A stretch of 64,000 nt of DNA from Blasia pusilla (taxonomy: Eukaryota): positions 33,480,001 to 33,544,000 of the forward strand of contig CM114271.1 of NCBI GenBank assembly GCA_050084515.1. The letters are read 5' to 3'. Positions 3,001 through 40,439 of this stretch are shown here, in pieces. Below the pieces are notes generated by a model, which was given only the letters and a program-made list of their open reading frames with translations, was not told the origin of the DNA and ran no database searches. Made by a program: the position numbers and the translations under genes. How positions within the stretch are numbered: the first letter of the stretch is position 1; each line of letters starts with the position of its first letter.

Positions 3001-3748
3001 GACTGAGTCGCCCTCCACCACCACCTCCATAGTCCTCTTTCTTGCTGGTGGACCCACCACGACTCCCAAAACTCCAAGGTCTCGAAAGAGAAGACCAGGC
3101 ATAGACATCCCCACCCCATACATCTTCCTGTAATTTCCCACCCTCTTCAACACAACAAGCTCCTCTGCCTCCATGGCCACCCCCTGCTCCATCAAACCCA
3201 ACCGGAATACCACTAGTCTGGGTTGGTGGACTTCCTCCCAATGCTCTGCCACTAAATGAGGAATTTTTAGCTCCACTGACATTCTGTGCTTTGATCACCA
3301 ACGTCCCACTAATAATTGAAGCATTTTCATTGAGGACAAGATTTCCAGCTAGTGCAATGGTGATGTTGCAGCCAGGAATCAGGCAGCCTAGAATCACATT
3401 AGGGAGTATTTCCAAGGATCCTTCACCAGCAATAATTGCATCTTCCTCCAGGAAAAACGTTTCATTGAGAGTGCAAACAGTTTTCAGAGACCCACTTCCC
3501 CGTAAGTCTGGTTCACAAGAAAGGGACTGATTCACAAGGTCTTGTGGTCGACACTGGGGATCATTGTCATTTAGGTCACACGGTCCGTCTTTTCTGGCAA
3601 ACAGAGAACCTGGGCTGAGTTGCGAGAAATGGTTCCACAACTCCAGAGAATCTTGGACAGGATTACAAGGTACAAGAGGAACAAGAGATAGGACCAAAAG
3701 TAGAAGTAATCTTGAAGAAGATCCACGCAAATAGTGGGGTGGACCCAT
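51..3748 (-). CDS. Large glycine-rich plant protein with N-terminal signal peptide (family of Arabidopsis At4g32920/At5g11700-type 'glycine-rich/ephrin receptor-like' uncharacterised proteins); 5' part only, gene continues beyond the left edge
   Basis: Manually spliced GT-AG exons that stay in frame: 2886-3748, 2558-2670, 2124-2332, 1845-1964, 1200-1328, 677-802, 410-468, 51-150. Hydrophobic leader RLLLLLVLSLVPLVPC; motifs GAGGGHGGRGACC, WGGDVYAWSSLSRPWSFGSRGG, GGGGSGGS, CPENSGAAGT, EFPNHPLWANV, SNSNLGLHGQGLLRLNG, PSEDCTLNTSSPFTLQ. Family assignment is from recall, not a search. Confidence 0.88.
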
Positions 3749-6700: not shown

Positions 6701-9700
6701 CCTGGACTATACCATACGTGGCGCGGCGTAGTGGTGGCGTTAGATTGGCTACGAGAGCTTTGTGCGATCGTCGCATGTGGCCCTCGGCGGTTGGTTTGCC
6801 TGGACGCATGGCACGCTCCAATTCGCTGTCGACGCATCGATATGCTTGAACTGTCACGGCGTGACGGATCGAGTGTACTCACAAATACCATTCATAAAAC
6901 TCAGTCCCACGACAGGCGACGGCACTCTTGGCCAATAAACGGTAGGCATCACTGTTGGTAACTTCAAGCGATAATAATAAAACTCAAATCATAAAGAATA
7001 GACGAGGTAGAATTCGTCGAGAATAAAACTTTTACGATAAAATAAACTAAACACTCGTCACGCACATAAACCCAACCAAATGGTGGAACCAATTTTAATT
7101 AAAAGTAAATATAGTTAGAATAAAAAGGGATGGAAAAACTTATCAAAAGGAGAACTCAAGGAATCAATGAATGACGAGATCACAAACCCTCCTAGGGAGA
7201 ATAAAAAGGGAACCCTATAATCTGATTTCAGAAACTACCAAAATAACGTCAACAAGAATTTTGGAAACCTTTTTTTTTAAGAGGTTTCCAAGCGTGGCGT
7301 CAAAAGGAAGGCCTCTTAAGTGGGAAGGTAAAGAAAGCCATCTTACAAAATTTGGATAAATGATTTTTATAAATGGAAGTAGAAAGCCAGTATGTGGCCC
7401 TGGTTTTTAAAAATTTTGGATGAATGATTTTTATAAATGGAGGTAGAAAACCACTATGCGGCCCTGGTTTTGAGTTATATAACGGTGTTCGGAGGATTGG
7501 AAGACACAAATACACTCGGAAACTAACAAAATCGGGAGTAACACGGCACGCCGCATGTTTGGAGGCTCCACTTGAGACCTGGGAAATCCAAATATGAATC
7601 TATATATGAGAAGAAAGTAACTAACATATAGGTGGATAGTCTAGATAGCCTTAAGAAAATAACGAGAACTTGGAGGGGCGATAATAAGTAACATGTACAT
7701 AGTTTAGATGGCTAGGAACAACTTGTAGAGGCCAGTTCAGAGAACACGACAGTCGGAAGTAACACGACGTGGAAGTCTATTCTATTTCGTATTAACGAGA
7801 TAATTAATATTTTCACGGTGGAGTTCACATCCATTGACCCTGCAGAATAACTTGCATTCTGCAGGATCTGCACACAGAGTCGACTACCGTAGGGGCCATA
7901 ACAAGCAAAATAGTGGTATAATGGTGGTCTAAATTATAAGTTTCGAGTATGACTTATATCTCTTTTTTTTATCTATGATTATCATTTTTATCATCATACT
8001 CGTAAGAAATGCTCATAAGATGCATCTAAATTTTACAATCACAATGATTAAAAATATTATCATATTTATTTTTAATTCCATTTCTTATAATCCAAATATT
8101 TTGTACGTCACACAATTGTTTGAGTCTATTACTTTTGTATCTTGTTGAATTGATTTTTATGTTGGCATGTTATCATTTTCTTTTCATATTCTATCATGCA
8201 TTTTATGTATTTCCTAACTCATACCCTTCTTTTGAATTTTTTTTGTAATAAAATAGATATTTATGAAATAGAAGACAAGTGTGGATGGATAAGAAGAGAC
8301 TAGTATCTCATCGCCTCATATAAGCATCCCTTTTGGTGAAATGCGAGTGGGTGGTATGGTGTGGGCGGGCCAACCGGTGATGAGGCGTGCTCATATGCAA
8401 TTGAAGCTAAGCATTGTACATCTGTTTGAGACCATGAGGAAATAAAATGCAAGATTCTCATAAGCGGAATCGGAGAGAGGGAGGGATTCAATATGTGCAC
8501 ATATATGGGAGAAGGATAAGGATTCGAGATGTCTATGATGTAGTTGGATGAATTCTACCAACAATATCCCTCAACACTGAATTCCAATCACCATAGTGCT
8601 GGTCTGAAAAAATCACAATGGAGATGTCAAGCCATCGTAACGCCTCCGCTTAGAAATTTGCATGCCACATATTCTTTCCTTATGAAATTGTGGTGATCCA
8701 ATCAGAGTTGTTAACATCCACTTAAATTTTCCAACCTTCACCCTCTTGTCACACACACTACACTCTATCATTGAGTTTGGTGTTTATGATGTCCCTACAC
8801 TTGCCCTTCGCAAGCCTAGAGTCCTATAGTTTGCTGCACACATGACACACTTGAGTCAACCATCCATCCCATTTTCAAATCTTACAGACTTGCATATCGA
8901 TGTCAAGTCACTTACAAGTTACACTATCTTATTGAAGCTACGAGGAAGCAATTGTCTCTAAACGTGGCTTGGTATTACCTGTGCCCTTTGTCATTTGCAC
9001 TCCTTGAGTTGGTCCTAGCCCCAACCATTGGTTTTTTCCATACGTGTCTAGAGTGCTATTATCGAGTCCATAAAGGGCATGGCTACTTCCAAACCAATCT
9101 TGACTATTTGGCATCGCATGATAGGGTCCCTAGCTGTAATTAGAGAATCCATCTTGCACAAAATCTACACATGACACATATGTCATAGTAGTGCACATAC
9201 ACATTAGAGTATTCTTGGTCTCTTGCCAAAAATTGACGGGATAGCTTTTTCTGTTCATTCCCCTCAACTACTAAAATAAAACTCTCAATAAATCAATCAT
9301 TGGTGTCCGTATTGTGAAATGCATAAGCATATGAGACGGCGACTGGAGAAGCTAGCAAGTCCTTGTAATAGATCATACTAGTTCCATGGGTGTGAATGAA
9401 TGTCGTGTGTATAGTATGCCTAACTCAGATTTTCATTTGTCCATAAGCTTAATCATGGATCGCTCCAGACCCTCTCCAAGAGTACAGACTTCATTCGTGC
9501 TTGAGCATCTCCCCTTCTGATGTCGTAAGTGGTAGAAGTGATACTCATGAATATTGGGAGACTGACAACTCCCAAATGTTCTAGTTTGATTCCTAGCTCC
9601 CTCATCTAGATGATTCAGAGTTGATCAAGCACAGACCAAGTCTACCATGATTGCTAACATCCACAACTTCAACACCATACTAGTTTTAGAGCTCCTTTCA

Positions 9701-9849
9701 TACTTCGATAGGCTATGGTTGGATTGGATCCCGATCAAGAATGGTGGATTTCGCCCTCTACGTACACATATAGAGAAGAAGGCAAATCAATGGGGTTTTG
9801 TGACCTTCTAGACAGAGAGCTAAGGAAAACTTCCACTAGTCTTGTCAAC

Positions 9850-9851
<2 letters not shown>

Positions 9852-9899
<48 letters not shown>
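9852..9899 (+). repeat. (GA)24 microsatellite
   Basis: Uninterrupted GA dinucleotide run seen directly. Confidence 0.95.
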
Positions 9900-9901
<2 letters not shown>

Positions 9902-11401
9902 CAATGACTTATGGAGTGGTGATGCCTTTTCATTACACTCTTCAACATGCATATGATGAAAGCAAAAATAGTCTAATAGACAAGAAAACATTCATCACGG
10001 TAGTGAAGTTGACACGTAGAGAAGTGGGGGAGCGGAATGAGTGGTAACGGTGATTGGAAGGACGTATCCATGATAAATTTGAAAGTTTTTGGATATATTT
10101 CCCTTACGAGTGAGTCGCGCTAAAGACTAGACTCCACGATTAGGGTGTATAGATTCTTGGGAAAACTTCGAGAGCAAGTTAAAAAAAATGGATATAAAAT
10201 TTAAATTGAATCTTAGTGGCACAAATCGATCATGTAGAGTAATGAGGATGAAGAATATCACTAAGCAAAACTTGTCAAAAATGTGGAGTCACTTGCCATT
10301 ACATTAATATATATCTCTCTTTCTGTTAGTTTTCTACAAGTTAGTTTCTACAAGTTTTCTCCACTACTCTGCTCGCCATGTCAACATTTTCATTTCAATC
10401 TATTGGAGTTGGATTATGTCAAAGGATCTAGAGGTCTTCATCAAGAATAAGCTCTGGAGAAAGATAGTGTAGGAGCTCGATGTTGAAACTTGTTAGCTCC
10501 ATTTTTTACAAAATGAATTCAGCTCAATTACATAGGTTTACCATGAGGAAAAATTATCCACTTTCGAGCGCTTTATGAAGCTTTTAATGAAAGTGTTCCA
10601 ATTACATACTTATGCTTTCTGGACAAGTCTTCCAAGAGTGACAAAAATAACGTCTTTGGGCTCCAACCAAGATTGGAAAAATAACGTCTTTGAGAGTTGA
10701 GAGAGATGAGGCCCATGGATTGGAAGAGAGAGAGAGAGAGAGAGAGGTTCTTAACCTCTTCCATGACGCCCAGACTTGCAGGCTGAAGCCGCCCACTTCC
10801 TATCCTTCCCACCAATGTGATCAATCTCAATGCGCTCCAAACCCACTACATGGGAAATATAAATCCTCGTGCACAAACTATGCTTGGAGATTATCAAGCA
10901 GAATCTGACAACCGATGAAACAAAGCAAAGAAAAAGCTAAATGCCCTAAATGCCCACTCATGGCAAGTGCAGAGAAGAGAAGCACGTTTGCGACATGAAT
11001 GTAGGCTCAAACGAGGACGACGTTGAGCTAAGCGCGTGAATTCTTTATTAAAAAATGGAAGACATGGCCTTTAAGTCCAATACACTAAACCCATGCCGTT
11101 CCTCTAAAAACAACCTTACTGCCCTATACCCCAAATCTCTAATAATCCCTCCCTAAAGAATAAGATTACAAGGTTTACTTACTTAAGTAGTGTTTCATTA
11201 GCTTCCACTTATATAAGTTGCTCCTACTTTCATCCATTCACCCTATATCCAAAAATGTAGCATGTAACATATACTTCTAGAAAAAATAATACAAATATGG
11301 GTTTTTGTTCGAAGTCTAAAACCCTTCCGTGATTGCGAATTGGTATTGGAAATAAGTAATGGTTGCCACCCCGATCCTAATCCCCTCCCCTCTCTAAGTT
11401 T

Positions 11402-11549
11402 ACACTAGTCACTAATTGTGACTAAACCATCTTGTGAGTAATTGCTGAGTCAATTGATTGGTTCCACATTAACTTACTGTAATTCAAATGACTCTTAGAA
11501 ACACCAGTCACAAACATATGGGTTTAAAATGGCCTTTTTCCTACTAATG
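11402..11549 (-). mobile_element. Possible eroded terminus of a CACTA/EnSpm DNA transposon
   Basis: Minus strand reads CATTAGTAGGAAAAAGGCC (close to a CACTAGTAGxAAAA terminus); nearby short inverted subterminal-like motifs GTCACTAA/GTGACTAA. No partner end found. Confidence 0.25.
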
Positions 11550-12381
11550 ACACCATCTACAATAAAAACGGGCCGCGAGCTATAATACGCACAAATCCAC
11601 TCACTTGACATCTTAGAGTTACAACTCAAATGCATTCTTTGGGACGCACACCAAAAAAATGTAGCCAAAATATGTTAATAACAGCAAATACTGCAACTGA
11701 AGAGATGTTTGTAGAAGGGCGAGAGCATTTTCAAATAGGTGGATGTACAAACAAAGGAAAACAGTGCCATATAGGGACAAGCGGATAGGGAGAGCTAGAG
11801 TAATGATGACAACGGGGAAGAAGCAGTATTTCAAGATAATAGCATTTGCAAATAGGAGGATGTAGAGAGGAAGGAAAATGCTACCATATAGAGATAGGGA
11901 AAGTCGTGGCAATGATGATGGTAAGGAGGAAGCACTATTTTCAGGGAGAGGGAAAGTGACATAGGCACCAATGGGTCCTACATCAGAGCAAAGGCATGGT
12001 AAGAGGAGAGGAAGAGAGGAGAGAGGAGGAAGGAAGAGATGAGAGAGGAAACTACCTCCAACCCAAAGAGATACTTTTTTTTAAGAGAGTTTCTTGTGAT
12101 TTGAAGAGAGGAAGGTTTTTTTTGTGAACATTTTTGCAATTTTGTTCTATGTGCTTAGTCACTCCTACAAATTGGTTTTTCCTCTTCCATATTCTGGCAA
12201 CCCGTCTGAATCCGACGGGTTGCAACTTGCACAAAAAAAAAAAAATTTTGAAAAATCCTTGGGATCACAAATGTGGAACAAATTGTATTTTCCATCCAAG
12301 GTCTGAAAAAAATCCATCATCTTCCCTTAGCTGAATAGAGCTCAAGCTCATAGTGAACATTCTGGAAATTCAAAGTAAAAT

Positions 12382-12708
12382 CTAAGACCTCATTTTGCAT
12401 CCCACAAGTGGTTTGTTTAAAATAATTCGCACTTCTTTGAGGGATAAAATTGGTTGGTGGATTTCTACTCCTACCTCCGACTCTCTTAAAACTACAAGCA
12501 ACAAATAGTACATATTCTTACAAGGGAAATACATTTTCCCACTTGTCCCTCTTTTGACAAAGTCATCATAGGAAGATGAGCAAAAGCAACAGATATGTAC
12601 CACATACATCCATGTCACACTTGAATTCACACCAATGTTGTTCGTGACCCAATACATCCTTCCTATTCCATTGCCACTATGAACGTCTTTTGTAGCAATG
12701 ATTTCCAT
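12382..12708 (-). pseudogene. Degenerate SWIM-type zinc-finger fragment, probably transposon-derived
   Basis: ORF contains C-F-C-S-S-S-Y-D-D-F...GKMYFPCKNMYYLL...IHQPILS, resembling the SWIM CxC...CxH signature with the His lost; lies immediately left of element 1. Confidence 0.3.
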
Positions 12709-12783
12709 GTTGGCCTCCTGAGCTCATGCGATTCGCAATGCTCTCTCCACCATTGGCCTACACATTCTGTTTCTCTTCACCCG

Positions 12784-13303
12784 TCTCACGATTGTTAGGA
12801 TAGATGGGTGGGATCTAGCAGAGCATCTTCATGAGTAGTGGAAGACAGGCCTAGGAGGTTGAGGATGACGTATTGAGGCCCCGGGAAACTTGAGAGAGCA
12901 GGTTTTCCCTTCACTTCGGCTCATTTGGAGCCATATAGAGAAACTTACTATTTTGGGTAAGTTTCCATATTAGGGATGGTTGACTTTCCAATTTTGGAAG
13001 TGGCCCTTGACCCTCTACAGCAGGTCAAGAGCCAAGGAGGTGACCTACGAGCATAGGTTATCGTTGAGCGGGCTTGGGAGAGGCAAGGGGGTATATCTCC
13101 AAGAGAGAGAGAGAGAGAGCTTGAGAGCTCATTCTCTCTTTGTTGAACCTCTTGGCATAAGGCGGCGGAGCTATGGTCCCTTGCCTTGTGAGTGTAACCC
13201 AAGCCTCTCATTAGAAGAGTGGTTTTGGTTTGACATGAGAGAGAGTGCACACCTTTGAGAGCTATGGTGTGAGATGGTGTAGAGAGAGATTGGATCTTAC
13301 TTT
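12784..13303 (+). repeat. Terminal repeat A1 of element 1 (LTR-like)
   Basis: Direct repeat of 22187-22697; homologous in reverse complement to 25637-26149 and 30334-30845; TATA-like GTATAT at ~13091. Confidence 0.9.
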
Positions 13304-14826
13304 ACAAAGAGAGAATGAGAGAGCTTCATGGGGGATCTCGCTGGTCACTCGTTGTTTTTGCAGGTTGGGGACCGTTTTCCCCATTCAGCGGCTCATGGGA
13401 GTGCTCATCGGAGCAAGGGCTGCTTTGATTGTTCTTTGCATTTGCCGATTTTTCGTGTGGAAGAGTGGCGCGCGGAAGCGGTGCACAATTTTTAATAGGG
13501 ATTGATTGTGGGGGCGGGTTGCCCCATGCCAGTGCTCTCAAGAGCACCATGTAGCATGCTGATTAGTATTTTTACAGGTTTTACATTTTGGTTGGGAGAA
13601 ATCAGCACGGAAGCGCTGCCCAATTTTGTGTAGGAGAAAGAGATATTGAGCTTTACGACAATCCCTGTCAGTTTTTACTGGAATGTTTGATTCTAAATAT
13701 TTTTTGATATTGTTGTAGATCGTGGAGATGTGCACATTGTGAAATAAATAATGTGTAATTTAGAGCTACGAGTAAAAAGTTATGGTCAATCTTGCAAAAT
13801 TACCATTGCTAGGCAATTTTTAGGGTTAATTTGTTCAAACCCTAAACCAGCCGCCACCGTCATAGTCATCGTCAACGGTCCACCATCGATGGTCAACCAT
13901 CACCTTCAACGGTCCACTTTCTGTTATCCACCCTTTGGTTGCCATTTCCGCCATTACGGAGTGGAGGGTCTTCCAAAATGTTCGTTGATTCTCTGACTTG
14001 CGTCGCCACCACGTACTTTGTTTTGGCCGCCACTGTCATCGTAGTTTTGTCATCAACCACTGATGGCAGATGACCTCCGGTTATGGTGTTTGAGTTTTGA
14101 TTTCATGTTGCTATGTTGTGATTGGTTGCCGCTCAACAATGATCGAGAACCATGCCGTGACGTCCGTAGTTGCAACACGCCGCCAATTGCTGCGCCGTGC
14201 CGCTCTTGGCCGCACCACACCATCTCGATCGCGGAACCGCTCCTTCACTAAGGAGCAGAGCGTGTGAATTGCTGATTGAGGAGGGTATGCCGCCGAGTGC
14301 CACACCCCATTCCCGAGTGCGGTGTTGTTTGTAGCCGTTCCGTGCCGCACCGGACCGCTCGACCTGCACCGCACATCGAGGAGGTTGAGCAGCGTCAGTA
14401 CGAGAGGAGTATAACTTGCTGATTGGAAGAGTTGTCTTCACGACCAAGTTGGGGTTGAGATTTGTAGTTGCTGAGGAGAGACGTTGACATGTGTTCAGGT
14501 TACCCATTATGGTCCTTTACCCTGCACGTATGAGGGATTCTGGGATTTGGGTAGTTTATTTGGGGATATTGGGTTGTGTGGATGTTGAGAGCATTATTCA
14601 TGTATATGATTAGGGGACATAGACCTATGTGGGATGTCCAGAGTTCAGGGTAGGTGGTTGATGAGATGATAGCCTGTTCCATTTGTCGCACCACGCCGTG
14701 TGTTGCCGCACGTTACACATCTCGGGGAGGGAGAGTGTAGATCGAGTACCGCATGTTTGGGATGAGAGATTGAGGGATTACTCGCAAGGTTGAGAGTGAT
14801 TGGGTGAGAGAGGCATGAGAGTTATC

Positions 14827-17400
14827 ATGGCGTCCGTTCAGGACTTTGAGAGGCGAGGTGGTGAACTTGAGAGTAGCTCTAGAGGTTTTACGCGGAGTGG
14901 CGCGAGGTTCCGAGGGTCTCCACGTGAGGGACCATCTCGACCTCCTTTTGTGTCATCGTCAGACAAAAGGAGGGTGTAGAGGAGTTTGTGAGCACATCGC
15001 CACACATTGTGAGTGGTCTTACCATTTGGGCGTACGAGATGGATGACCGAGGTAGAGGACCACGTAGGTTTTCTGGTGTAGTAGGCACGATTTCAAAGCA
15101 GAGTTTAGGAGTTGGTGCGACTCCCAGCGGGCCAAGAACTCTAGAGAGTTCAACCTGTTTACAACATGGAATGGTATGTTCCAGCATTTAGAGGGGGCCC
15201 CATGGACGATAACCATGAGTTCTCCCATAGATATGCCTAGGAGATTCAGGCATGGCAACTCTACTATGACCCACACTATGTGTCATGGACAAAGCCGTTC
15301 CCAGATGAGGAGAAGGAGTCAGGAGAGGCTAAATCCTCTTACACTAGTGATGTTTTAGGAGGGGTCACTCACACTGGAGCAGTTGAACCATCTAGTCGGG
15401 ATCATCCCAGGTTCAACCCCGTGGTTGAGTTCTTCGCTGAGTTGAGCGCCAGCTACCAAGAGATACGAATAGAGAATTCGAAGTTGCAGAGCATCCACGA
15501 CTTCAAGAGGCGCCCGGATGAGAGTTTACGTGAGGCTTACACTCGCCTACGTCGGTTGATCAACGTCACTTAGGGGGTGACGGAGGCTCAGTCTATCCAG
15601 TCAAGGTATGCGATCCTGGACCGGACCCTGCAGATAAGGGTGCATGAGGGGGTGCTTCTTATGAACACCTCCCCTACGTTGAGAGATGTTTTTAGGACAG
15701 CCAAGAACATTGAGTGCAACATGGAGAAGGAGAGCGTAGCCACCATGGGTTTTGGGCGAGAGCAGTCACGATTGGCTGCACCACTTGAGCAGCAATGTGG
15801 ACTCCGAGATAGGTTGACTGTCGCAACACAAGCTCAGGGATGATACTGGGAGGACGTGCCACAGAGACCTGCATCTTCATATGCGGCTCAGCAACAACCG
15901 CCTACTATTATTTGTTGGTAATGTGGTGGAGCCTATCATCAGCGCAATTGCACTCGTCTCGATCATGGACGTGTGCCTCAACATGGAGGAGGAGATGGTG
16001 CTGCACCAGGAGGTTATCAGTGTGACTATTGTCAGAGGTATGGTCATACACACGCCAAGTGTTTCAGTTTACATCCTCAGTTACGTCCGGACTGAGGGCC
16101 AGAGAGTGCACCAAAGCGAGTAGCCAATCCGGGTGGGCTAGAGATTGTGCACGAGGTGGTCCCGTTGGGGGACGAGGAGGTGGAGTTGCCCGAAAAGGTG
16201 GTGGAGTTGCCCGTGGAGGAGGTAGAGTACCATCACCTAGACCCGCCGAAGGAGAAGCCGGACGTGAGGCTGGGATGGTTACTCAAATATAGCAGGTACA
16301 GGAGCACATTGCCGCTATGGCATTGAGGTTACCCAATGCCGGATCCGTGGCATCGACATCATATGCAGCAACTAGAGATATGGAGGATCTTGGTTGGATG
16401 TGCGGGGTTGCCTAGATGGAGGCCGCCATAGTTGTGAAGCATGGAGCAGCCGCAGAGTTGGATCCACAGCGAGGGGAAGCCAGAAAACATACTAGGCTTC
16501 CTCAGTCTTTCACGTTGTCCGAAGCAATGAGGACCCCATCGATGGATCCTCATCTAAGTTCCTGGAGAGTTGGTGATGTTGTTGGTGTGCAGGCACGAAG
16601 GGCGATGCGAGAAGCGAGTGCGATGACTCCTATTGTTGATGCTCAAGAGGGCCATGTCAAGCATATTGTTGGGGGCGACCACCGTTGTGTACCGCACTCC
16701 TTTATTTTCTGCTTTCGATGTTATAACGTTGGGGGGTACGCCCCCCGAGGCTTTTTGGCTGGCCGCTTCACTATGTGAGCGCGGAGTTGGAGTTCTTGCA
16801 TCACGTTAAGAGGTGATTGCAGAGCAGGTGATGGACCTGCCCTTGGAGCGGATGCTCGGGTCGTCCACGTCAGATTCATGGCAGGCTGCGGCTGCTAGGA
16901 TGGCACAGATGCCCGCTAGACCCGCGATAGAGCATGCCATGGCTTCTCCTGGTGTTGTGTTGCTGGACAACCAAGGAGAGGTCTTCCAGTTGGTGAGTCC
17001 CAAAGGTAGAGTTTTTGGTCTGCAGCGCGTCTTGTTGGATTCAGGAGCGCAACCCCTGATGTTGAGGAAAGCGTCATTCAAAGGATTGGGCTTGATGAGA
17101 GCCGATGTAGAGCATTGTCCATTCCGGATAGACATCCTTGGGTGGAGCGAGTACCATACAATATGTCATCCGGCATGAGGTCGTGGTGAGGATTCACCTG
17201 GGACATCCTACAGATGAGTCCGTGGTATGAGCCAAGGCGATAGTGACTGATGTAGAGTCCTACGACGTCTTGGTTGGTGGAGCATTGTTATACCCGATGG
17301 GGTTTTCCCCGGATTATAGGGAGGAGTCAATGTCCTACAGACCAGGATGGCAGTCAGGTGATGGGCGCCTTAGCTCATTACCCGTTCAATTCATAGGTGC
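14827..17400 (+). pseudogene. Element 1 Gag (two zinc knuckles) and aspartic protease, decayed
   Basis: ESLREAYTRLRRL Gag core; knuckles CW*CGGAYHQRNC (~15912) and CDYCQRYGHTHAKC (~16021); LLDSGAQP protease active-site motif; YDVLVG flap-region motif. Confidence 0.8.
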
Positions 17401-17755
17401 AGTGATCGAGCGACGGCCAGGAGAGGTGGCGACCTTAGCAACATTTAGCAGTACCATCACTTGGCCTAGTGATTTGATTGAGGGACATGTCCATGCAGAG
17501 GATACTTCCGTTCCTGACATTTCTATGGAGAGGAGTGTTATGATAGCCGCATCATTCCGTGGAGGAGAGGTGTCGTTGTGGGGCTCGATTGAGGAGCTTC
17601 GACGATTGGCAGATGGGCACGTGGAGACCGCGTGGAGCAAGATGTTTGCATCGGAGCGTGATGTGTGTGAGGAACCCAAGGTAGCAAGGAGTGCTACGAT
17701 GACACCCTTGGATACCACACCCATTGTGTGATGTATCCCGGAGGAGGATATTTGA

Positions 17756-18680
17756 GTATTAGATCTCTTTGGAGGGATTAGCACCGGGTTAGCTGTTGTT
17801 TTGCAGGCAAGAGTGCGAGTGCAGCAGTACCTGTATATGGAGAGTGATGATGTTGCAAGGCGCATCTCACTACGACATGTGGCGCAGTTATGCCTACGTT
17901 TTCCTGACTTATTGTCTGCGTCCGCGGTACATGGATACTTGAGTTTCCTACCTAGGGATATTTTGTTGCTAGGGGCGTAAGACTTAGAGCGGGTAGGAAC
18001 CATTGATTTGGTCATTGCCCATTGGCTATGTCAAGGCCAATCGAGTGTTGGACGAGGCAGCGGGTTGGATGACACTCGGTCGAGGTTGTTTTGGGAGATG
18101 TTGAGGGTCTTACGATAGTTGCACGAGCACCACTCTCATTCTCCAGCCTACATTCTGGAGAATGTACCGATCTTAGGAGACTCCAAGTCACAGGTGGTGA
18201 GAAGGTGCGTGCCTGGATCGGCCCAACAGTGTTCTTGGATACGGCAAGTGTAGGTTCTAGAGCCTATCGCCCGCGTCTATGGTGGACCAACTTGGTGCCC
18301 CATGCGGTGTTACGGAGGGCGTATGCGAGAATGGAGCACCCCTCCCATTTGTTAGTGGATTCCATTCTAGATCCGGGTCGTCCATTAAGGCAATGAGGCA
18401 CGATGATTGACCACCCTTAACTGTGGTCAATAGGGTAGGCAGCCGCGGGCAGCCTTGTCCACGTTTGTGAGTTTTCCTGCTTCCTATGCATGCAAGGAGG
18501 CCGGGCCTAGCTTGGATTGGGATGACCAGGTTCAGCGGTTGGTGGAGCCCAACGCCGACGAGAGAGAGCGAGCGATGGGATTTCCCACAGGAGTGACAAC
18601 AATATCGTTAGTGTTAAAGGCATCATGACGCCATGTCTTGGGTCAGGCGATGGACTTGAACTGCTTGACATGGATCCTCA
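17756..18680 (+). pseudogene. Element 1 C5 DNA cytosine methyltransferase domain (DNMT3-like), decayed
   Basis: Motif I VLDLFGGISTG; II YMESD; IV DLVIAHWLCQG (GWPCQ in other copies); VI YILENVP; VIII RPRLWWTN; IX ERERAMGF; X LGQAMDLN, in canonical order. Confidence 0.9.
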
Positions 18681-19019
18681 GCTTGGGAGTGGTTGAGCAG
18701 CGTCGTATGAGATCGCAAGAGATCACAGCGGTTGAGTTTGTGAGCCCCATGCCTATCGAGACGATGGATGCAGTGGTTGGGGGCGAGACTCGAGGAGATC
18801 TACATACTAGGGAAGATCAGGAGAGACATCCTTGGACTTCTTGGGATGTTTTGCACGTACGCCAAGAGATGATAGCCATAGCATTGAGCGTAGTTCTGGT
18901 ACTACACGTGGAGGAGATCAGAGTTTGTAGTTAGCTGCAGGAGAGCGGCCGAATATTTTTGTTCGAGACGGGGTTGCACCATAGCAACCACCGCCTCACG
19001 TCGGAGAGTCCTACCGTAG

Positions 19020-21870
19020 TCATGATGGAGACTTGGGAGCCAGATATGGGCCTTAAGTTGATAAGAGGAGAGCGGCGCCGGATACATCAGTTCCTCAAGA
19101 GTTATAAGAGTTGCTTTGCCTTTAGTATGGAGGATTTGGGTACAATGAAGGGACCGGGGATCCGCATTGAGTTGTCGAGTGATACGCCGATCTTCCGACG
19201 ACCCTACAGGTACAGTGACATGGAGAGGGCTATGATTTAGAGTAGGAGCCAGGACTTGGTCGGAGCAGGACTAGTGGAGATGTCGCATGGGGAGTATGCA
19301 CCTGCCACTATCATGCCCGCCAAGAAGGATGTGCATGGCAACTAGACGGACAGACGGATGTGTGGGGATGACCGACCTATCAATTGGTAGATGAAGCCCG
19401 ATAGGTATGCCATGCCCATCCCTGAGGAGATCTTTGATACGATTGGTCACGCAAAGGTCTTCAGTTCATTGGATTTGCGAGTCGGATACCATCAACTGCC
19501 TATCAGACTGGAGGACAGGCAGAAGACGGTATTTTGGGGCATCGATCCTCACATGAAGGATTGTTTGTACTAGTGGCGGTTCTTACCATTTGGGTTAAAG
19601 AACGCCCGGGCTGAGTTTCAAAGGGTCATGGATAAGATCTTGGCTGGTCTGGATTTTGCTAGGTATTATATTGATGACATCGTAGTCTTTAGCGCCACGG
19701 TTGAGGAGCATGAGCGACATCTAGAGGAGGTGTTTCGACGATTGCAATTACATGAGCTGAAGCTACATCCAGGCAAGTGCAAGTTCTTCTATGACCAAAT
19801 TGAGTACTTGGGTCATACGATATATCAAGGGGCCTTAGTGTTCAACAGAAGAAGGTAGAGGCTATCTCTCGCATTCCACGCCCTACAGATGTGAGCCGTG
19901 TTTGCGCATTCATGGGATTGGCAAACTTCTATCAACGGTACGTCAAGGGATTCAATTCGATTGCAAAGCCGCTACCCTTGCTGAACAAGGTGGATCATGA
20001 GTGGCATTGGGGGGATGAGCATGAGCGAGCATTTCACTTGCTCAAGGACAAGTTGACATCCGCGCCCATCTTGAGGAGACCAATCAGAGGGCGTCCTTTC
20101 TAGTTGCACATAGATTTGAGCATGTTGGGGCTTGGAGCGGTGCTCACCCAACATGATGAAGAGGGTAGAGAGTTCGTGGTGGCTTACGCTAGCCGCTCGA
20201 ACAACGATGTAGAGGTGAAGTACAACTCGTATGAGGGTGAGTGCTTGGCTGAAGTGTGGGCTGTCGCGCATTTCAGGTGTTACTTATTCAAAATCCATTT
20301 ACCATCATCAATGATCATCAACCACTGAAGTGGTTGATGGAGTCTGACAAGCTTATAGGGAAGCTTGCAAGATGGGCTCTGTTGTTGCAGGAGTATGATT
20401 TTCAGGTGATACATAGACCTAGGACGCTCAACCAGGATGCAGATGGGTTGAGTTGTAACCCATTCCCAAGTCTGCGAGATGCGACTGGAGCTCGATGGCA
20501 TGGAGAGAGTGATGATGAGTCAGTGCCCAAATGGCACGCGTCAGGCTATTTAGGCATGTTGGCTATGGAGGGCCAGAGTGTGGAGACTTTGATGGCGATG
20601 TCTAGTGGAGAGTCCTTGGATCCCTAGGCCACTGAGGAGACGATAGGTAGCTGAGATATTCATGATGATGGAGTAGTCTTGGAGTACCTTCGTACTCACA
20701 CCGTTGTGAGCACCGTGGGTGCTAGAGAGCGGGATCGGATCCTACAGCGGGCCAGACGGTTCCGTTGGGAGGGGACTCATGTTTTGAGGGTTTGGGAGGA
20801 TGGTAGAGTACGCGTAGTGCCGCATCTTTTGCAGAGAGCACAACTAGTGCAACATTCCCACGAGGAGTTGGGTCACTTTGGGGTGAAGCGGACGTACAAC
20901 TTGCTCTAGATTCAGTATTGGTGGCGAGGCATGTAGACTGACGTTCAGCATTTTGTTGCCACGTGCATGGTGTGTGATCCGGTCCGAGCATCGTTCAATG
21001 CTCCAACTCCATAATTGCATCCATTACCGATCATGGGCTTAGGGTAAAGATGGAGTTTGGATTTTGTAGGACCTTTGCCTCTAACAAAACATCATAGTTG
21101 TTATGTGTTGGTGATGGTCGAGCACTTCTCGAAGTGGATCGAGTTGGTCACATTTCCTGACAAAGCGACTGAGGGAGTAGTTTATGCCTTCCTTGATAGA
21201 TTTTTGAGTCATTATGGCGCACCGGCTGAGGTGTTGACAGACCAGGGTATCGAGTTTTGCGGTGAGTTCTAGGCCTTGTGCGATCGGGCGTTGATCAACC
21301 ACCGCACGACTTCACGAGATCATCCCGAGGCAGATGGATTAGCGGAGAGAGTTGTGCAGACGATGAAGAGGGCTGAGCTGTTTCGGAGAGTGATGCCCAT
21401 GACGTTCGAGAACTTGGCGATTGGGCAGCATCGGGATACGTCGAGGTATGCAACTATTCGGGGTGGTGGTTATCGACCAACTATCCGGAAGTTTCATCAG
21501 GGAGATTATCTCTACTTGCAGCAGACGGCACCGACGACGTTGGATGTGACTGTAGGGCGCACTATCATGAGAGTGCGTGACGTTTTTCCATCCAGTATTC
21601 TCTTGCTCGAGGGACGCGATGGTATGGTATGGTATGGAAGGACCATATGCGTAAATGTGCGCCATGTCACCTTCCTAACATTGATGGTACAGTAGATCCA
21701 AGCTCACAGTAGTTCTTGCAGGCTTGTGTTGTATGTTGTGTGGTTCTGTTGATGGTGCGGCCACAATGCTAGTCTGTGATGGATGTTCGAGAGGTTGGCA
21801 TATGGCATGTCTGACGCCACCTCTCACTAGGGTTCCTCGGGGACGATGGATGTGTCCCAGATGTACATAA
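19020..21870 (+). pseudogene. Element 1 RT - RNase H - integrase - PHD finger, decayed
   Basis: LDLRVGYHQL, PFGLKNA, YYIDDIVVFS (RT); VVAYASR, DHQPLKWL, NQDADGLS (RNase H); HEELGHFG, DFVGPLP, TDQG, DGLAERVVQT (integrase); CMLC...CDGC...WHMACL...WMCPRC (PHD). Confidence 0.92.
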
Positions 21871-22058
21871 AGGAGATATTAGGTAGGTTTCAATTCCGAC
21901 TTTTTATGTGACATGGATGATAGGAAGGCGACTAAGGATGGGGCCACATGAGCACCCAGCCTTTCCGCTCTTAGCGTCCTAGAGATGTATGTCATGGTAG
22001 GTAGGGATAGATAGCTATCTGGAGTTAGAGGGACCTAACCATCAGCTAGGGGGGAAAT

Positions 22059-22807
22059 TGGAGATATTTTGGTACTTCTCGCCTCTGTGTATGGATGCCA
22101 TGAGTTAGCATGGGATCGTGTGTGTTTGTGTGTGTGTTCGATGACAGCGATGTATATTGTGTAGCGATGTGTATGCACACGACAACTATCAAGATTGTTA
22201 GGATAGATCGATGGGGTCTAGCAGAGCTTCTGCACGAGTAGTGGAGGACACACTCAAGAGGTCGAGGATGACGTGTTGAGGCCTCGGGAAAACGGAGAGA
22301 GCATGTTTCCCCTTCGTTTCGGCTCATTTAGAGACATATAGAGAAACTTACTATTTCGGGTAAGTTTCTATATTGGGGATAGTTGACTTTCCACTTTGGG
22401 AAGTGGCCCTTGACTTGCTACATTAGGTCAAAAGCCAAGGAGGTGACCTGTGAGCATAGGTTACCGTTGAGAGGGCTTGGGAGAGGGAAGGGGGTATACC
22501 TCCAAGAGAGAGAGCTTGAGAGCTCATCCTCTCTTTGTTCAACCTCTTGTCATAAGGCGGCGGAGCTATGGTCCCTTGCCTTGTGAGTGTAACCCAAGCC
22601 TCTCATTAGGAAAGTGGGTTTGGTTTGACATGAGAGAGAGTGCATACCTTGAGAGCTATTGTGTGAGATGGTGTAGAGAGAGATTGGATCTTACTTTATT
22701 GGAGATGTTTTGGTACTTCTCCCCTCTGTGTATGGATGCCATGAGTTAGCATGGGATGTGTGTGTTTGTGTGTGTGTTGGATGATAGCGATGTGTATGTG
22801 CACGAAA
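22059..22807 (+). repeat. 3' repeat block B1-A2-B2 of element 1
   Basis: B1 22059-22184 and B2 22700-22807 are direct repeats (TGGAGAT.TTTTGGTACTTCTC...GATGTGTATG.GCACGA) flanking A2; preceded by the PPT AGGGGGGAAA. Confidence 0.9.
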
Positions 22808-25508: not shown

Positions 25509-28500
25509 TGTTGTGCGCATACACATTGTTACACAACATACATCGTTGTCACCCAACACACACACAACCACGCACGATCCCATGCTAACTCATAGCATCC
25601 AAACAACGAGACAAAAAGTACTAAAATATCTCCAAGAAAGTAAGATCCAATCTCTCTCTACACCATCTCACACCATAGCTCTCAAAGGTGTGCACTCTCT
25701 CTCATGTCAAACCAAACCCACTCTCCTAATGAGAGGCTTGGGTTACACTCACAAGGCAAGGGACCATAGCTCCGCCGCCTCATGCCAAGAGGTTCAACAA
25801 AGAGAGAATGAGCTCTCAAGCTCTCTCTCCTTGAGGTATACCCCTCCCCTCACCCAAGCTCTCTCCATGGTAACCAATTCTCCCGAGTCACCTCCTTGAC
25901 TCTTGATCCAATGTAGGAGGTCAAGGGCCACTTACCAAAAATACAAAGTCGATCATATACTCAAAATGGTACTTACCTAAAATAGTGAGTTCCTCAATAT
26001 GGCTCCAAATGAGCCGAAACGAAGGGGAAACCTGCTCTCTCATGTTTCCCGAGGCCTCAGCAGATCATCCTCGACCTAATGAGCGTGTCAGCCACTACTC
26101 ACGAAGGCGCTCTACTAGATCTCACTGATCTATCCTAAAAGACGTGATAGTTGTCGTGCGCATACACATCGCTACACAACATACATCATTATCACCGAAC
26201 ACACACACAAACACGAACGATCCCATGCTCACTCATGGCATCCAAACAACGAGACAAGAAGTACTAAAATATCTCCACTTTCCCCCTTAGCTCGTGGTTA
26301 GGTCCCTCTAACTCTGTAGGATCCGATCCCGCTCTCTAGCATCTACGGTGCTCGCAACGTTGCCAGTACAAAGGTACTCCAAAACTACTCCATCATCATC
26401 AATATCTCGGCCACTTGTTATCTCCTCACTCGCCTCGGGATCCAAGGACTCTCCACTAGACCTCGCCATCAAAGTCTCCACACTCTGGCTCTCCATAGCC
26501 AACATGCCTAAATAGGCTGACACGTGCCATCTTGGCACCGACTCCTCATCACTCTCTCCATGCCATCGAGCTCCAGTCGCGTCTCATTGACTCGGGCATG
26601 GGTTACGACTCAACCCATCTGCATCCTGGTTGAGCGTCCCACTTCTATGTACCATCTGAAAATCATACTCGTGCAACAACAGAGCCCATCTCGCAAGCTT
26701 CTCTGTAAGCTTGTCGGACTCCATCAACCACTACAGTGGTTGATGATCAGCAATGATGGTTAAGGGATTGCCAAATAAGTAACACCTAAAATGTGCGACA
26801 GCCCACACCGCAGCCAAGCACTCACCCTCATACGAGCTATACTTCGCCTCTGCAACATTGTTTGAGCGGCTAGCGTAAGCCACCACGAACTCTCTACCCT
26901 CATCATCATGTTGGGTGAGCACCGCTCCAAGCCCCAACATGCTCCAATCTGTGTGCAACTCGAAAGGACGCCCCCTGATGGGTCTCCTCAAGGTGGGCGC
27001 GGATGTCAACTTGTCCTTGAGCAATTGAAATGCTCGCTCATGCTCATCCCCCAGTGCCACTCGTGATCCACCTTGGTCAGCAAGGTCAGTGGCTTTGCAA
27101 TCAAACTGAATCCCTCGACGTACCGCCGATAGAAGTTCGCCAATCCCATGAATGCGCAAACACGACTCATATCTATAGGGCGTGGAATGCGTGAGATGGC
27201 CTCTACCTTCATCTATTGAATACTAAGGCCCCCTGGGTATATCGTATGACCCAAGTACTCAATTTGGTTGTAGAAGAACTTGCACTTGCCTAGATGTAGC
27301 TTCAACCCATGTAATTGCAATCGTTGAAACACCTCCTCTAGATGTTGCACATGCTCCTCAGCCGTGGCGCTAAAGACTACGATGTCATCAATATAATACC
27401 TAGCAAAATCCAGACCAGCCAAGATCTTATCCATGATCCTCTGAAACTCAACCCGGGCGTTCTTTAACCCAAATGGTAAGAACCGCCATTGGTACAAACA
27501 ACCCTTTCCGTGAGGATCAATGCCCCAAAATACCGTCTTCTGCCTGTCCTCCAGTCTGATAGGCAGCTGATGGTATCCGGCTCGCGAATCCAATGAATTG
27601 AAAACCTTTGCATGACCAATTGCATCAAAGATCTCCTTTAGGGATGGGCATGGCATACCTATCGGACTTCGTCTGCCGATTGATAGGTCGGTAATCCCTA
27701 CACATCCGCCCGTCCGTCCAGTTGCCATGCACATCCATCTTGGCGGGCATGACAGTGGCAAATGCATACTCCCCATGCGACATCTCCACTAGTCCTACTC
27801 CGACCCAGTCCTGGCTCCTACTCTAAATCATAGCCCTCTCCATATCACTATACCTGTAGGGTTGTCGGAAGATCGGCGTATCACTCGACAACTCAATGCG
27901 GATCCACGGTCCCTTCACCGTACCCAAATCCTCCATACTAAAGGCAAAGCAGCTCCTATAACTCCTCAGGAACTGATGTATCCGGCGCCGCTCTCCTCTT
28001 GTCAACTTAGGGCCCATATCTGGCTCCCAAGTCTCCATCGTGACTACAATAGGACTCTTCGGCGCGTATATCCGTGGTTGCTATGGTGCAACCCCGTCTC
28101 GAACATCAACACTCGACCGCTCTCTTGCAACCAACCGCAAACTCTGATCTCCTCCACCTGCAGTGCCTGGAACCACGCTCGATGTTGTGGCTATCATCTC
28201 CTGGCGTACCTACAAAACATCCCAAGAAGTCCAAGGGTGTCTCTCTCGATCTCCCATGGTGTGGCGATCTCCTCGGGTCTCGCCCCCAGCCACTGCCTCC
28301 ACCGTCTCGGTAGGAATGGGGCTCACCAACGCAACTGCTGTGATCTATCGCGATCTCATACAACGCTGCTTAGCCACTCCCAAGCTGAAGATCCATGTGA
28401 AGCAGTTCAGGTCCATCGCCTGACCCAAGACATGGCATCGTGAAGCCTCTGATAATGACGGTACTCCCGTCACTCATGTGGGAAATCCCATCGCCCGCTC

Positions 28501-39205: not shown

Positions 39206-39610
39206 TAGTGGCTTGGTAGAGATGCGGTTTCATACATAGGGTTGGGGGTTACTCAGTTGGGGATGACTTTCCCAGTAGGGCCCGCTCTTAGGTTGGAGGA
39301 TATAAGGTGGAGTGCACTCAACCTAAGAGTCAATTTTTGAGTTGAGCCTGTTGCGTTGGGAGTTAGCCTTGGTAGTGAGTAGAGCTCTTGGCTATGGTGT
39401 TTCCCGCAAGCTTCGACCTAGATTCTCCCATCGTGGAGTGGGTTTGGCTCGATTGTATGTGATTCTATACGTGTTTTATGACAATAGGTCTTTCACGGAT
39501 TTCAGTTTTGGTACACTTGTGTTTGTGGATACTCTCGTCTATGTTATGTATGTTTGTGAGTATGGTATGTCAGCGATGTATGTTGTATGACGATGTGGAT
39601 TCGCACAACA
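39206..39610 (+). repeat. Partial A plus complete B terminal repeat of the element 3 family, in opposite orientation to the element body
   Basis: ~39509-39545 TGGTACACTTGTGTTTGTGGATACTCTCG.CTATGTT matches the reverse complement of 31774-31812; ends with the family terminus GCACAACA at 39610; TATA-like GATATAAG at ~39299. Confidence 0.75.
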
Positions 39611-40439
39611 CGCTAGAAGCTGTAGAATATTTTAGTTCATATAAATTTGCTTTGATGTGGCCATTAGGACTTCACGAACATCAAAATTTTAGTTCTAATA
39701 ACTAACCACACAATATTCCTCCTTAGGAAGATCAAGGCCAAATGAGACCTCAAGTTCTAATTAGGCTCCCTCAGGTTAGCCCATAGGACCCTTGATACCA
39801 CAATTGGATAACACGCTTTAGATAGAATTAGAGCTTAAGCTCCATTTTTGCAGAACTTAAGCGTATAACCTTCAACCTGCATTCGAATGTTGCCAAGATG
39901 AAGGCAACCTCTTTCTTCACTTTCCCAATATGTATGGACCATGCAAGGTAGGTTGCGATGACCTCATTTAATTCCATGCTTCAATTATCATACGTTGACA
40001 TATTCATCCCACAAAATTTTATTGGCGTGTCCCATGTTTGCGAGGACTTCATGATGTCGGATTTTCCAAGAGACGAACGCCCAATTGGAAGTGAGAATGT
40101 TTTTCTTATGAATCATAAAACAAACTCTTTTTTGGTTTGTTTATAGAAGATTTAGTACATTTGAGACAATATTTAAAATTAATTTAATAAATCTCAGGCC
40201 ATCGAACCCTTGAGATGTCAAGAAGAATTATCACGGGAAAATAAACTAATCTATTCTTAAACATTTTACCTTCCTACTCTGATCTTCGGTAGAAAAAAGA
40301 GACTCAATTTCTTGCAAAAGAAGATGAGTGGAACGAAGGAGTGGACTTGTTGTTGTGGGGAGGATTTGATTCAAATTTAATGAACTTGATTCCTAATTTT
40401 ACTTTGAAGCTCAAATTCAAGGAAATTAGAATCATTACG

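Follow-up and report, generated by a model that had tools for sequence, protein, structure and literature searches.

DNMT3-like cytosine methyltransferase domains in decayed Gypsy-like retrotransposons of Blasia pusilla

Four decayed retrotransposon copies and their methyltransferase domain

A stretch of 64,000 nucleotides from Blasia pusilla (assembly GCA_050084515.1, contig CM114271.1, positions 33,480,001 to 33,544,000 of the forward strand; hereafter, the window) contains four retrotransposon copies, E1 to E4, which very probably are dead members of three families within a Ty3/Gypsy-like lineage that codes for a DNMT3-type cytosine-5 DNA methyltransferase (DNMT) and is of the same kind as KnitGypsy-Dnmt3 of the alga Klebsormidium nitens. 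Copies and families were defined by self-comparison of the window: E1 and E2 form one family (85-89% nucleotide identity), whereas E3 and E4, each approximately 66-74% identical to the other copies at the nucleotide level, represent a second and a third. Pfam matches on the read-through frames of E1 and E4, combined with pattern matches, give the order Gag (with a CCHC zinc knuckle), protease (PR), DNMT, reverse transcriptase (RT; RVT_1), RNase H (RH), integrase (IN; Integrase_H2C2 and rve) and PHD finger, so that Pol of both E1 and E4 ends in a PHD finger and not in a chromodomain. The Gypsy-type assignment of the RT is made at the level of Pfam matches of the kind typical for Gypsy elements (RVT_1, RT_RNaseH_2 and Integrase_H2C2). 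Matches to zf-CCHC were obtained in relatives, and the Asp_protease_2 match in one relative, P0107, scores 23.6 bits, slightly below the cut-off of 24.3.

A sequence-only reading of the window had proposed that all four copies carry, at the same position inside Pol, the motifs of a cytosine-5 methyltransferase in canonical, non-permuted order. Three-frame translations bear out the order, with motifs I (VLDLFGGISTGL), IV (DLVIAGWPCQG), VI (ILENV), VIII (RPRLWWTN), IX (ERERAMGF) and X (LGQAMD), although not every copy has the full set: E2 is without motif I and E3 retains only motifs I-VI. With stops read as X, the DNA_methylase profile PF00145 (cut-off of 22 bits) scored above the cut-off in 3 of the 4 copies, namely, E3 (35105-35620, minus strand; 32.6 bits, E 7e-8), E2 (28330-29328, minus strand; 32.3 bits) and E1 (17702-18748, plus strand; 26.4 bits), and below it in E4 (60830-61878, minus strand; 17.3 bits); intact relatives score 31.8-45.5 bits. 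The DNMT domain in these copies is real, far beyond chance. The shared position was also confirmed, the domain following the protease motif VLLDSGAQ and preceding RVT_1 (Table 1). In E4, motif I shares the frame of the post-protease linker, as had been stated, and the remainder of the domain lies one frame off; the intact relatives P0107 and P0118 have the DNMT in frame with its neighbours. The placement inside Pol held only in part: the domain does lie between PR and RT of Gypsy-like elements, but instead of belonging to a single Pol open reading frame (ORF), it forms, in this clade, the C-terminal part of a Gag-PR-DNMT frame closed by a conserved, probably leaky, stop codon.

The domain had further been judged closest to DNMT3, and both sequence profile and fold agree. 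When a profile built from 20 relatives was searched against all PDB sequences, DNMT3A ranked highest (E 1.8e-18, 69.7 bits), followed by DNMT3C (1.6e-16), DNMT3B (1.2e-15), tobacco DRM (1.4e-10, 43.7 bits), Arabidopsis DRM2 (3e-7), M.HhaI (3e-5, 26.1 bits), DNMT2 (4e-4) and DNMT1 (0.5, 12.1 bits). The alignment to DNMT3A consists of two stretches, one with motifs I-VIII and the other with motifs IX-X, and the order is unchanged; the alignment to DRM covers only motifs I-VI, at the C-terminal end of DRM. The AlphaFold model of an intact relative, P0005 (mean predicted local distance difference test score of 83.6, predicted template modelling score of 0.80), is confident over residues 1-328 and ends in a disordered C-terminal linker. 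Compared with the PDB by Foldseek, it returned DNMT3A, DNMT3B or DNMT3C as all 34 matches listed (ranks 1-49), with a best E of 2.5e-19 and a template modelling score of approximately 0.8 normalised on catalytic-domain chains. The domain is thus DNMT3-like in the sense of a similarity ranking and not of a phylogenetic placement, the ranking having been made against solved structures that hold only animal DNMT3s and plant DRMs, with no tree including host DNMT3, DRM, CMT and MET1.

All four window copies are pseudogenes. The DNMT region of E2 has 5 in-frame stops in 313 codons, one of them directly after the motif IV cysteine, and is without motif I; in E4, 9 stops fall within 349 codons of its frame, and one frameshift follows motif I; E1 requires at least 2 frame changes, and its motif IV reads HWLCQ; E3 ends after motif VI, the C-terminal half being deleted. 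GWPC is kept in E3 and E4. As RT and IN of the same copies are equally broken, decay came later than insertion.

The broken state of all four copies would suit the view that the domain is a passive, non-functional fragment of a host DNMT3 captured by one element family, and so would the negative yeast test reported for the Klebsormidium domain (PMC5890265). The evolutionary record of the domain speaks otherwise. We estimated the ratio of nonsynonymous to synonymous substitutions (dN/dS) by the Nei-Gojobori method on codon pairs from frame-tolerant protein matches for 6 pairs, 5 of them between families. The between-family ratios were 0.14, 0.25, 0.21, 0.19 and 0.22 for DNMT and 0.14, 0.23, 0.16, 0.45 and 0.16 for RT-RH-IN in the same pairs, all of them rough and biased low, equally for RT, since dS is saturated (1.1-2.0) and only alignable codons enter. 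For the within-family pair E1-E2, the ratios were 0.57 and 0.63, as expected because of decay after insertion. A ratio near 1 between families had been named beforehand as the mark of a passively carried host fragment, and the values found, 0.14-0.25, are far from it and equal to those of RT-RH-IN. The DNMT has evolved under purifying selection, like the essential enzymes RT, RNase H and integrase beside it. In alignments of 20 and 41 diverse relatives, the motif IV Pro-Cys, ENV, the motif VIII arginines (Arg-x-Arg) and the motif IX Glu-Arg-Glu are invariant or more than 90% conserved, the catalytic motif IV cysteine and the ENV glutamate being invariant across all 41. Together with the equal decay of the flanking RT and IN and the breadth of the lineage, which reaches chlorophytes, Closterium and bryophytes (see below), these results bring the passive-fragment explanation close to refutation.

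The elements are not bounded by plain long terminal repeats (LTRs). E1, E2 and the 3' end of E4 show the repeat order A-coding-B-A-B, in which repeat B, approximately 100-140 nucleotides long, stands on both sides of the 3' copy of the approximately 500-nucleotide repeat A; the latter begins with TCACG. Approximately 1,400 DNA reads connect the end of A to the start of B (joint 13303 to 22057), which confirms the A-B junction across the copies of the family. The A copies are 88.4% identical in E1 and 96.7% identical in E2, a divergence that marks both insertions as old. Inspection by eye revealed neither TG..CA ends nor a primer-binding site or a target-site duplication, and no systematic search for a primer-binding site was made. 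The lack of these hallmarks, the absence of a working enzyme from the window, the saturation of dS and the restricted set of structures behind the DNMT3 ranking all weigh against the overall reading given at the outset. The elements are richer in G+C (0.50-0.51) than the DNA around them (0.42-0.43), and a strong GC skew tracks their orientation, being positive over E1 (plus strand) and negative over E2-E4 (minus strand).

Table 1. Features of the four retrotransposon copies in the window (position 1 is the first nucleotide of the 64,000-nucleotide stretch).
Copy	Feature	Position	Strand	Evidence or remark
E1	Element, repeat A to terminal repeat B	12786-22800	+	
E1	Terminal repeat A, 5' copy	12786-13304	+	88.4% identical (459/519) to 22189-22698
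E1	Gag CCHC zinc knuckle, CDYCQRYGHTHAKC	16021-16062	+	Pattern match in translation
E1	Protease region, VLLDSGAQPLM at 17032	16810-17400	+	Translations
E1	DNMT3-like methyltransferase domain, stops and frameshifts, motif IV HWLCQ	17756-18700	+	PF00145 26.4 bits, motifs
E1	In-frame TAG between DNMT and RT	18932-18934	+	Context TAG CTG CAG decayed, displaced by insertion
E1	Reverse transcriptase RVT_1	19346-19822	+	Pfam 88 bits
E1	RNase H (RT_RNaseH_2 / RT_RNaseH), two frames	20008-20396	+	Pfam 97 and 62.7 bits
E1	Integrase (Integrase_H2C2 and rve)	20835-21326	+	Pfam 54.4 and 50.9 bits
E1	C-terminal PHD finger	21730-21864	+	Pfam PHD 40.1 bits
E1	Short repeat B, internal copy	22058-22161	+	93% identical (97/104) to 22699-22800
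E1	Terminal repeat A, 3' copy	22189-22698	+	Match to 5' copy
E1	Short repeat B, terminal copy	22699-22800	+	Match to internal B
E2	Element, E1-family copy with internal deletions	25509-30843	-	Without gag-PR and part of IN
E2	Repeats	A 30334-30843, B 26152-26277, A 25637-26147, B 25509-25634	-	A copies 96.7%, B copies 91% identical
E2	DNMT domain, single frame, 5 stops, motif I deleted	28330-29268	-	PF00145 32.3 bits
E2	Conserved stop TAG CAA CCA	28081-28083	-	
E3	Element, ends undefined; gag-PR ~36160-38500, RT-RH-IN 32679-35035	~32020-38500	-	Self-comparison
E3	DNMT N-terminal half, motifs I-VI, GWPCQG intact; C-terminal half deleted	35151-35575	-	PF00145 32.6 bits
E3	Conserved stop TAG CAG CCA	35079-35081	-	
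E4	Element, runs past window end	56683-64000	-	Self-comparison, Pfam, patterns
E4	Repeats	B 56683-56819, A 56820-57302, B 57303-57445	-	
E4	Coding parts	PHD 57531-57662, RT-RH-IN 58249-60581, PR motif at 62554, CCHC 63492-63533	-	
E4	DNMT domain; motif I in protease-linker frame, remainder one frame off	60830-61880	-	PF00145 17.3 bits, below cut-off
E4	Conserved stop TAG CAA CCA	60619-60621	-	

Relatives, two architectures and known counterparts

The 313-residue read-through of the E2 domain, used as the query, matched 86 proteins of similar length and 32 longer ones, nearly all at 40-66% identity (29-39% for five weak matches). All named matches in both lists come from bryophytes, the remainder being metagenome or run-assembly proteins; Marchantia polymorpha accounts for 4 of the 86 and 14 of the 32, and the other named holders are M. 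paleacea, Riccia sorocarpa, Calypogeia fissa, Sphagnum troendelagicum, S. jensenii, S. tenellum and S. fallax. When 1.84 billion cluster representatives (50% identity) were searched with a profile, 8199 matched at E<=1e-3, of which 1809 reached E<=1e-10 and 454 reached E<=1e-30. Exact look-ups added two named holders, the chlorophyte Scenedesmus sp. PABB004, where the domain is part of 'pol', and the zygnematophyte Closterium sp., with proteins from NIES-65 and NIES-53. This is a large and old lineage. Only transposon-type sequences were returned by our three homology searches and one search of representatives, and the close bryophyte and Closterium relatives (from Marchantia, Calypogeia, Riccia, Sphagnum and Closterium) bear hypothetical-protein annotations. 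Neither PWWP nor ADD was found in any Pfam scan of the window elements or their relatives, the sole reader domain being the PHD finger at the far C-terminus of Pol; many DNMT3s are without companion domains (PMC12344493).

Among metagenomes, we kept 80 (L001-L080) of 286 stretches encoding relatives and checked 54 of these 80 for intact copies. A whole DNMT frame is present in 6 of the 54 (L001, L003, L045, L046, L050 and L052), and both long frames only in L046. The 80 loci come mostly from two Joint Genome Institute contig-name series, and a few families, in decayed copies, account for nearly all of them, a pattern suggestive of plant or algal DNA within those metagenomes.

Intact relatives display two domain orders. 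In the order seen in the window, P0107 combines zf-CCHC, protease and DNMT in one ORF of 1451 residues, and P0118 combines DNMT, RT, RNase H, integrase and PHD finger in one ORF of 1512 residues. In the second, represented by P0145, P0147, P0153 and P0137, the order is RT-RNase H-DNMT-integrase-PHD. Members of this sister group (these four and P0185) are single ORFs of 2000-3400 residues and abound in environmental assemblies; one copy carries the label of a Minisyncoccia bacterium metagenome-assembled genome, probably through a binning error, and two of the polyproteins, P0315 and P0319, list PF01585 (G-patch) among their precomputed domains. RT and integrase were placed by BLAST in 346 proteins matching the DNMT profile: RT precedes DNMT in 122 and follows it in 11, integrase alone (after DNMT) was found in 35, 2 are ambiguous and 176 have neither.

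A quick, unrooted maximum likelihood tree of 73 DNMT domains, from which E1 and E3 were omitted as too broken, was built from all 5 DNMT-before-RT sequences, 35 of the 119 RT-before-DNMT sequences and 33 of the 114 without RT (at least 250 profile positions; E2 and E4 included). The tree separates the two architectures with a Shimodaira-Hasegawa-like approximate likelihood ratio test (SH-aLRT) support of 98. The clade of 33 sequences with DNMT before RT, or without RT, comprises the window copies, bryophytes and Closterium; the clade of 40 sequences with RT before DNMT contains Scenedesmus and many environmental contigs. E2 and E4 fall within a clade of 16 sequences (SH-aLRT 99) together with Calypogeia, Sphagnum and Marchantia. 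Since the same PHD finger ends both architectures, the simplest reading is that of one backbone within which the DNMT was relocated a single time.

Elements of this kind were first described in 2018 (de Mendoza et al.). KnitGypsy-Dnmt3 of K. nitens is a Gypsy element whose Pol ORF includes DNMT3-related domains free of introns; it has DIRS-like A-coding-B-A-B repeats (Fig. 4c legend of that paper) and evolves with Ka/Ks <0.2; its copies are few, silent and methylated in K. nitens (PMC5890265). Judged by this published description, the window elements match it in all the features compared, namely, an intronless, non-permuted DNMT3-like domain in a Gypsy-type polyprotein, A-coding-B-A-B repeats and purifying selection (Ka/Ks <0.2 there, dN/dS of 0.14-0.25 here), and are the same kind of element, not a new one. 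They differ in that their nearest named relatives belong to liverworts and mosses and in that they number in the hundreds here, as opposed to few in K. nitens (PMC5890265). The text passages of the paper make no mention of a leaky-type stop or a PHD finger, which its figure or supplements may hold (PMC5890265).

This likeness could also be convergent, the bryophyte and window elements having captured DNMT3 independently of the Klebsormidium element instead of sharing one streptophyte lineage with it. Repeated independent captures are documented in the 2018 paper (PMC5890265), the comparison made here is one with a published description and not with K. nitens sequences, and no K. nitens protein was among the named matches in our homology searches. 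Independent capture is nevertheless improbable, given that the very unusual A-coding-B-A-B layout and the Gypsy-type domains are common to both (PMC5890265) and that the DNMT-before-RT clade places the charophyte Closterium beside the bryophyte clade.

Two further groups of retrotransposons carry DNMTs. SymbioDIRS-Dnmt3 and SymbioLINE-Dnmt are found in Symbiodinium; the DIRS elements resemble those of the window in their DNMT3-like domain, in their A-coding-B-A-B repeats and in occurring with two different domain orders, which parallel the two orders described here, but have a tyrosine recombinase in place of a DDE integrase and a dinoflagellate host, and it is for the DIRS type, not for the Gypsy type, that CG methylation has been demonstrated (PMC5890265). 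EpiLTRs of Cymbomonas and Euglena are LTR elements that likewise stack a DNMT and a chromatin reader; their DNMT, however, is sister to DNMT4 and located at the 3' end of pol, and they combine an adenine methyltransferase with a chromodomain (10.64898/2026.05.21.726589), whereas the window elements pair a DNMT3-like enzyme with a PHD finger as the reader, and Pfam scans of E1 and E4 contain no adenine methyltransferase.

In later papers, such elements appear only as 'streptophytes (Gypsy-DNMT3)' (10.64898/2026.05.21.726589) or as a previous report in streptophytes (PMC12344493). A literature search, with supplements, figures and subscription journals outside its reach, found no paper that names, for any land plant, bryophytes included, a retrotransposon bearing a DNMT, and the gene identifiers of the Marchantia models gave no match in it. 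The bryophyte and Closterium relatives, the second architecture, the conserved stop, the PHD end and the host abundance and sense transcription were not found in print, although these sequences may already feature in the Marchantia genome paper or among the supplementary trees of the 2018 and 2025 papers.

A conserved stop codon after the methyltransferase

Junctions between DNMT and RT were located by the ETWEP/DDWP motif that opens the RT leader in all metagenome loci and window copies (n = 44). A stop in the same frame lies 14-22 codons upstream of this motif in 41 of the 44 junctions. The exceptions are L024 and L051, which read tyrosine, and E1, with a stop 32 codons upstream in a decayed context; the E4 junction, missed by the pattern, has its stop 16 codons upstream of the RT-leader motif. 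In L046, a frame of 1369 codons (976-5085; Gag-PR-DNMT) and one of 1047 codons (5086-8229; RT-RH-IN) lie in the same frame with a single stop between them. Gene models of Marchantia (P0092, P0093, P0096, P0097 and P0101) and Calypogeia (P0089) end at the stop. The stop separates Gag-PR-DNMT from RT-RH-IN-PHD and is conserved across divergent families.

The stop and the two codons after it read TAG CAA CCA in E2, E4 and L001, TAG CAG CCA in E3, TAG CAG TTA in L045 and L046, and TAG CAA TCA in L050, all seven thus having the full CAR YYA. Tobamoviruses and other plant viruses have UAG_CAR_YYA as the consensus of their type I readthrough signal (PMC3542737). The largest group, L003-like with 33 rows, has TAG or TAA followed by CAA CCC; TAG TAG/TAA variants occur in five loci, including L052 (TAG TAG CCA).

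Programmed readthrough of the stop after DNMT appears fairly probable. Alternatively, RT-IN could be expressed by other means (splicing, reinitiation or a second transcript), or the stop could be an inherited defect of non-autonomous lineages. Several observations favour this alternative and count against readthrough: the largest family misses the final A of the motif, 2 of the 44 junctions have tyrosine in place of the stop, the sister lineages P0118 and P0184 are single ORFs without a stop at that place, the Marchantia gene models P0095 and P0100 continue into RT, and a joint seen in RNA, 19145 to 20216, indicates that some transcripts are processed or deleted. Moreover, many of the 41 stop-bearing rows are non-independent copies of one family, so that the independent evidence amounts to about seven sequence groups, with DNMTs only 42-60% identical. 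Yet it is at the same codon that the stop is found in at least seven such groups, at a divergence that has saturated synonymous sites; the frame always continues past the stop, and no ATG lies close downstream. CAR directly follows the stop in 6 of the 7 groups, the seventh being L052, and 4 groups fit the full plant-virus motif (PMC3542737). Expression without readthrough, or a mere defect, is accordingly the doubtful explanation.

The predicted readthrough signal resembles that of the tobamoviruses (UAG CAA UUA) and the gag-UAG-pol junction of gammaretroviruses, where an in-frame UAG with CAR YYA splits an abundant product from a rare polymerase fusion (PMC3542737). By contrast, the stop considered here comes after protease and DNMT and not after Gag, so that both protease and methyltransferase would be part of the abundant product.

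Abundance, PHD finger and possible functions

Three RNA runs and one Hi-C DNA run from the same organism were mapped on positions 9000-22188 of the window at 90% likeness. DNA depth (both orientations summed) is approximately 2-3 in the unique flank at 9440-11199 (about 2.4), compared with approximately 1100-4000 across E1 and 1170-1900 over its DNMT, which corresponds to several hundred copies at a likeness of at least 90%, an estimate affected by the uneven depth of Hi-C data and by reads that mostly fit only in part. RNA reads cover the whole element in all three runs and are absent from the flank, with the orientation expected for sense transcripts favoured approximately 10:1. The RNA reads are mostly 90-95% alike, and only 2-7 of approximately 2400-2700 reads per run are at least 99% alike; the transcripts thus come from other copies, broken or intact, which counts against the overall reading. 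For the non-repeat stretch 36500-46000, no RNA run was listed in the run index.

Two side observations came from the same mapping. Reads skipping 1070 bases between 19145 and 20216, in the RT-RNase H region of E1, number 12, 23 and 11 in the three RNA runs, compared with 2 DNA reads; the ends are TG..GG with 5 shared letters, and the skip may stem from transcription of a deleted copy, from non-canonical splicing or from template switching. Directly upstream of E1, 11640-12785 is another high-copy repeat, with a DNA depth of approximately 115-1000, compared with about 2.4 farther upstream, and nearly no RNA.

The 56-residue PHD stretch of E1 matched, among PDB sequences, CHD4 PHD2 best (E 6e-17), followed by PHF12 and by PHD1 of KDM5A/B and Lid, with further matches to DPF2, DPF3, KAT6A, BHC80, BAZ2A/B, AIRE, ATXR5 and UHRF1. 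Most of these PHD fingers read the unmodified tail of histone H3 (K4me0). PF00628 is also present in intact relatives and in the RT-RH-DNMT-IN proteins, and Chlamydomonas transposons are known to carry PHD fingers as accessory domains (PMC8557442). The arrangement recalls the chromoviruses, Ty3/Gypsy elements with a chromodomain at the integrase C-terminus: in both, a histone-tail reader (putative here) is fused at the C-terminus of the integrase, presumably for the choice of integration site. The reader here is, however, a PHD finger, with CHD4, PHF12, KDM5, DPF, BHC80, AIRE and ATXR5 as its closest solved counterparts.

How the enzyme might serve the element can be outlined as follows. Most ribosomes would halt at the conserved UAG and release Gag-PR-DNMT, and a minority would read through the UAG-CAR-YYA context to produce the full polyprotein. 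The methyltransferase, once processed, would be made in Gag-like amounts, would travel with the particle and could methylate the element's own cDNA or new insertion, and the PHD finger might steer integration, as chromodomains do in chromoviruses. That methylation of its own DNA is the function for which the domain has been selected is a tentative proposal. SymbioDIRS-Dnmt3 domains, which are related, methylated CG de novo in yeast (PMC5890265). Weighing against the proposal, KnitGypsy-Dnmt3 produced no methylation in yeast, a result that its authors judge inconclusive (PMC5890265, section 10), and extra CpG depletion in the elements was not found, their observed/expected ratios of 0.60-0.76 being comparable to those of the non-repeat DNA (0.62-0.78), so that there is no footprint of extra CG methylation and the measure is uninformative as a mark of self-methylation.

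The failure of the isolated Klebsormidium domain in yeast and the unexceptional CpG content would equally suit a domain kept for some other role, such as 5-methylcytosine modification of the genomic RNA, tethering of the particle to DNA or chromatin, or methylation of host DNA that disturbs silencing. Encoded in the Gag-PR frame, ahead of the stop, the domain would, moreover, come into contact with packaged RNA. Against such a role stand the methylation of CG by the SymbioDIRS-Dnmt3 domains and the fold and motifs of the domain, which are those of the DNA-methylating DNMT3 and not of DNMT2 (E 1.8e-18 vs 4e-4). In addition, relatives conserve motifs IX and X as well as the interval from motif VIII to motif IX, in which the DNA-recognition region of such enzymes sits. 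Another role is, on balance, unlikely.

If self-methylation is taken as the function, the observations could be joined into a broader scenario, itself rather speculative and in our view doubtful as a whole. A DNMT3-type enzyme and a PHD finger that reads the H3 tail would have been part of an ancient lineage of green-plant retroelements from a time before the split of chlorophytes and streptophytes, the DNMT would have moved once within Pol, and the elements would still be abundant and transcribed in land plants. In the streptophyte branch, the leaky UAG would make Gag-PR-DNMT the main product and so load each particle with many methyltransferase molecules that mark the cDNA before or at integration, and the PHD finger would send it to chromatin unmethylated at H3 lysine 4; a heterochromatin-like state written by the element itself might then escape recognition as foreign and could add de novo methylation to bryophyte genomes.

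DNA methylation is the main weapon of the host against transposons, which makes an element with its own de novo methyltransferase a paradox. Such elements had been documented in one charophyte and in dinoflagellates; here, the type is abundant and transcribed, and it has been annotated unnoticed in the genomes of Marchantia, Sphagnum and others. To the known kind, the present analysis adds a wider distribution that includes land-plant genomes, a second architecture, a leaky-type stop that redefines the enzyme-bearing product and a PHD reader. The stop offers a testable idea of the amount and destination of the enzyme, the PHD finger suggests a choice of insertion sites, and Marchantia, a transformable model with methylome tools, brings the question within reach of genetics. 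Unless masked, these elements will inflate counts of DNMTs in bryophyte and algal genomes.

Rfam at gathering scores gave no match in the window. Outside the elements, at 9843-9911, there is a GA/TC dinucleotide run, which reads RERERE in one frame and at which reads are apparently cut. On the minus strand, 2882-3763 contains an open frame of 293 codons with glycine-rich runs of the GGGSGG type, which has the appearance of a host-gene exon; the Atlas clusters nearest to it contain streptophyte proteins and score 0.97 and 0.96.

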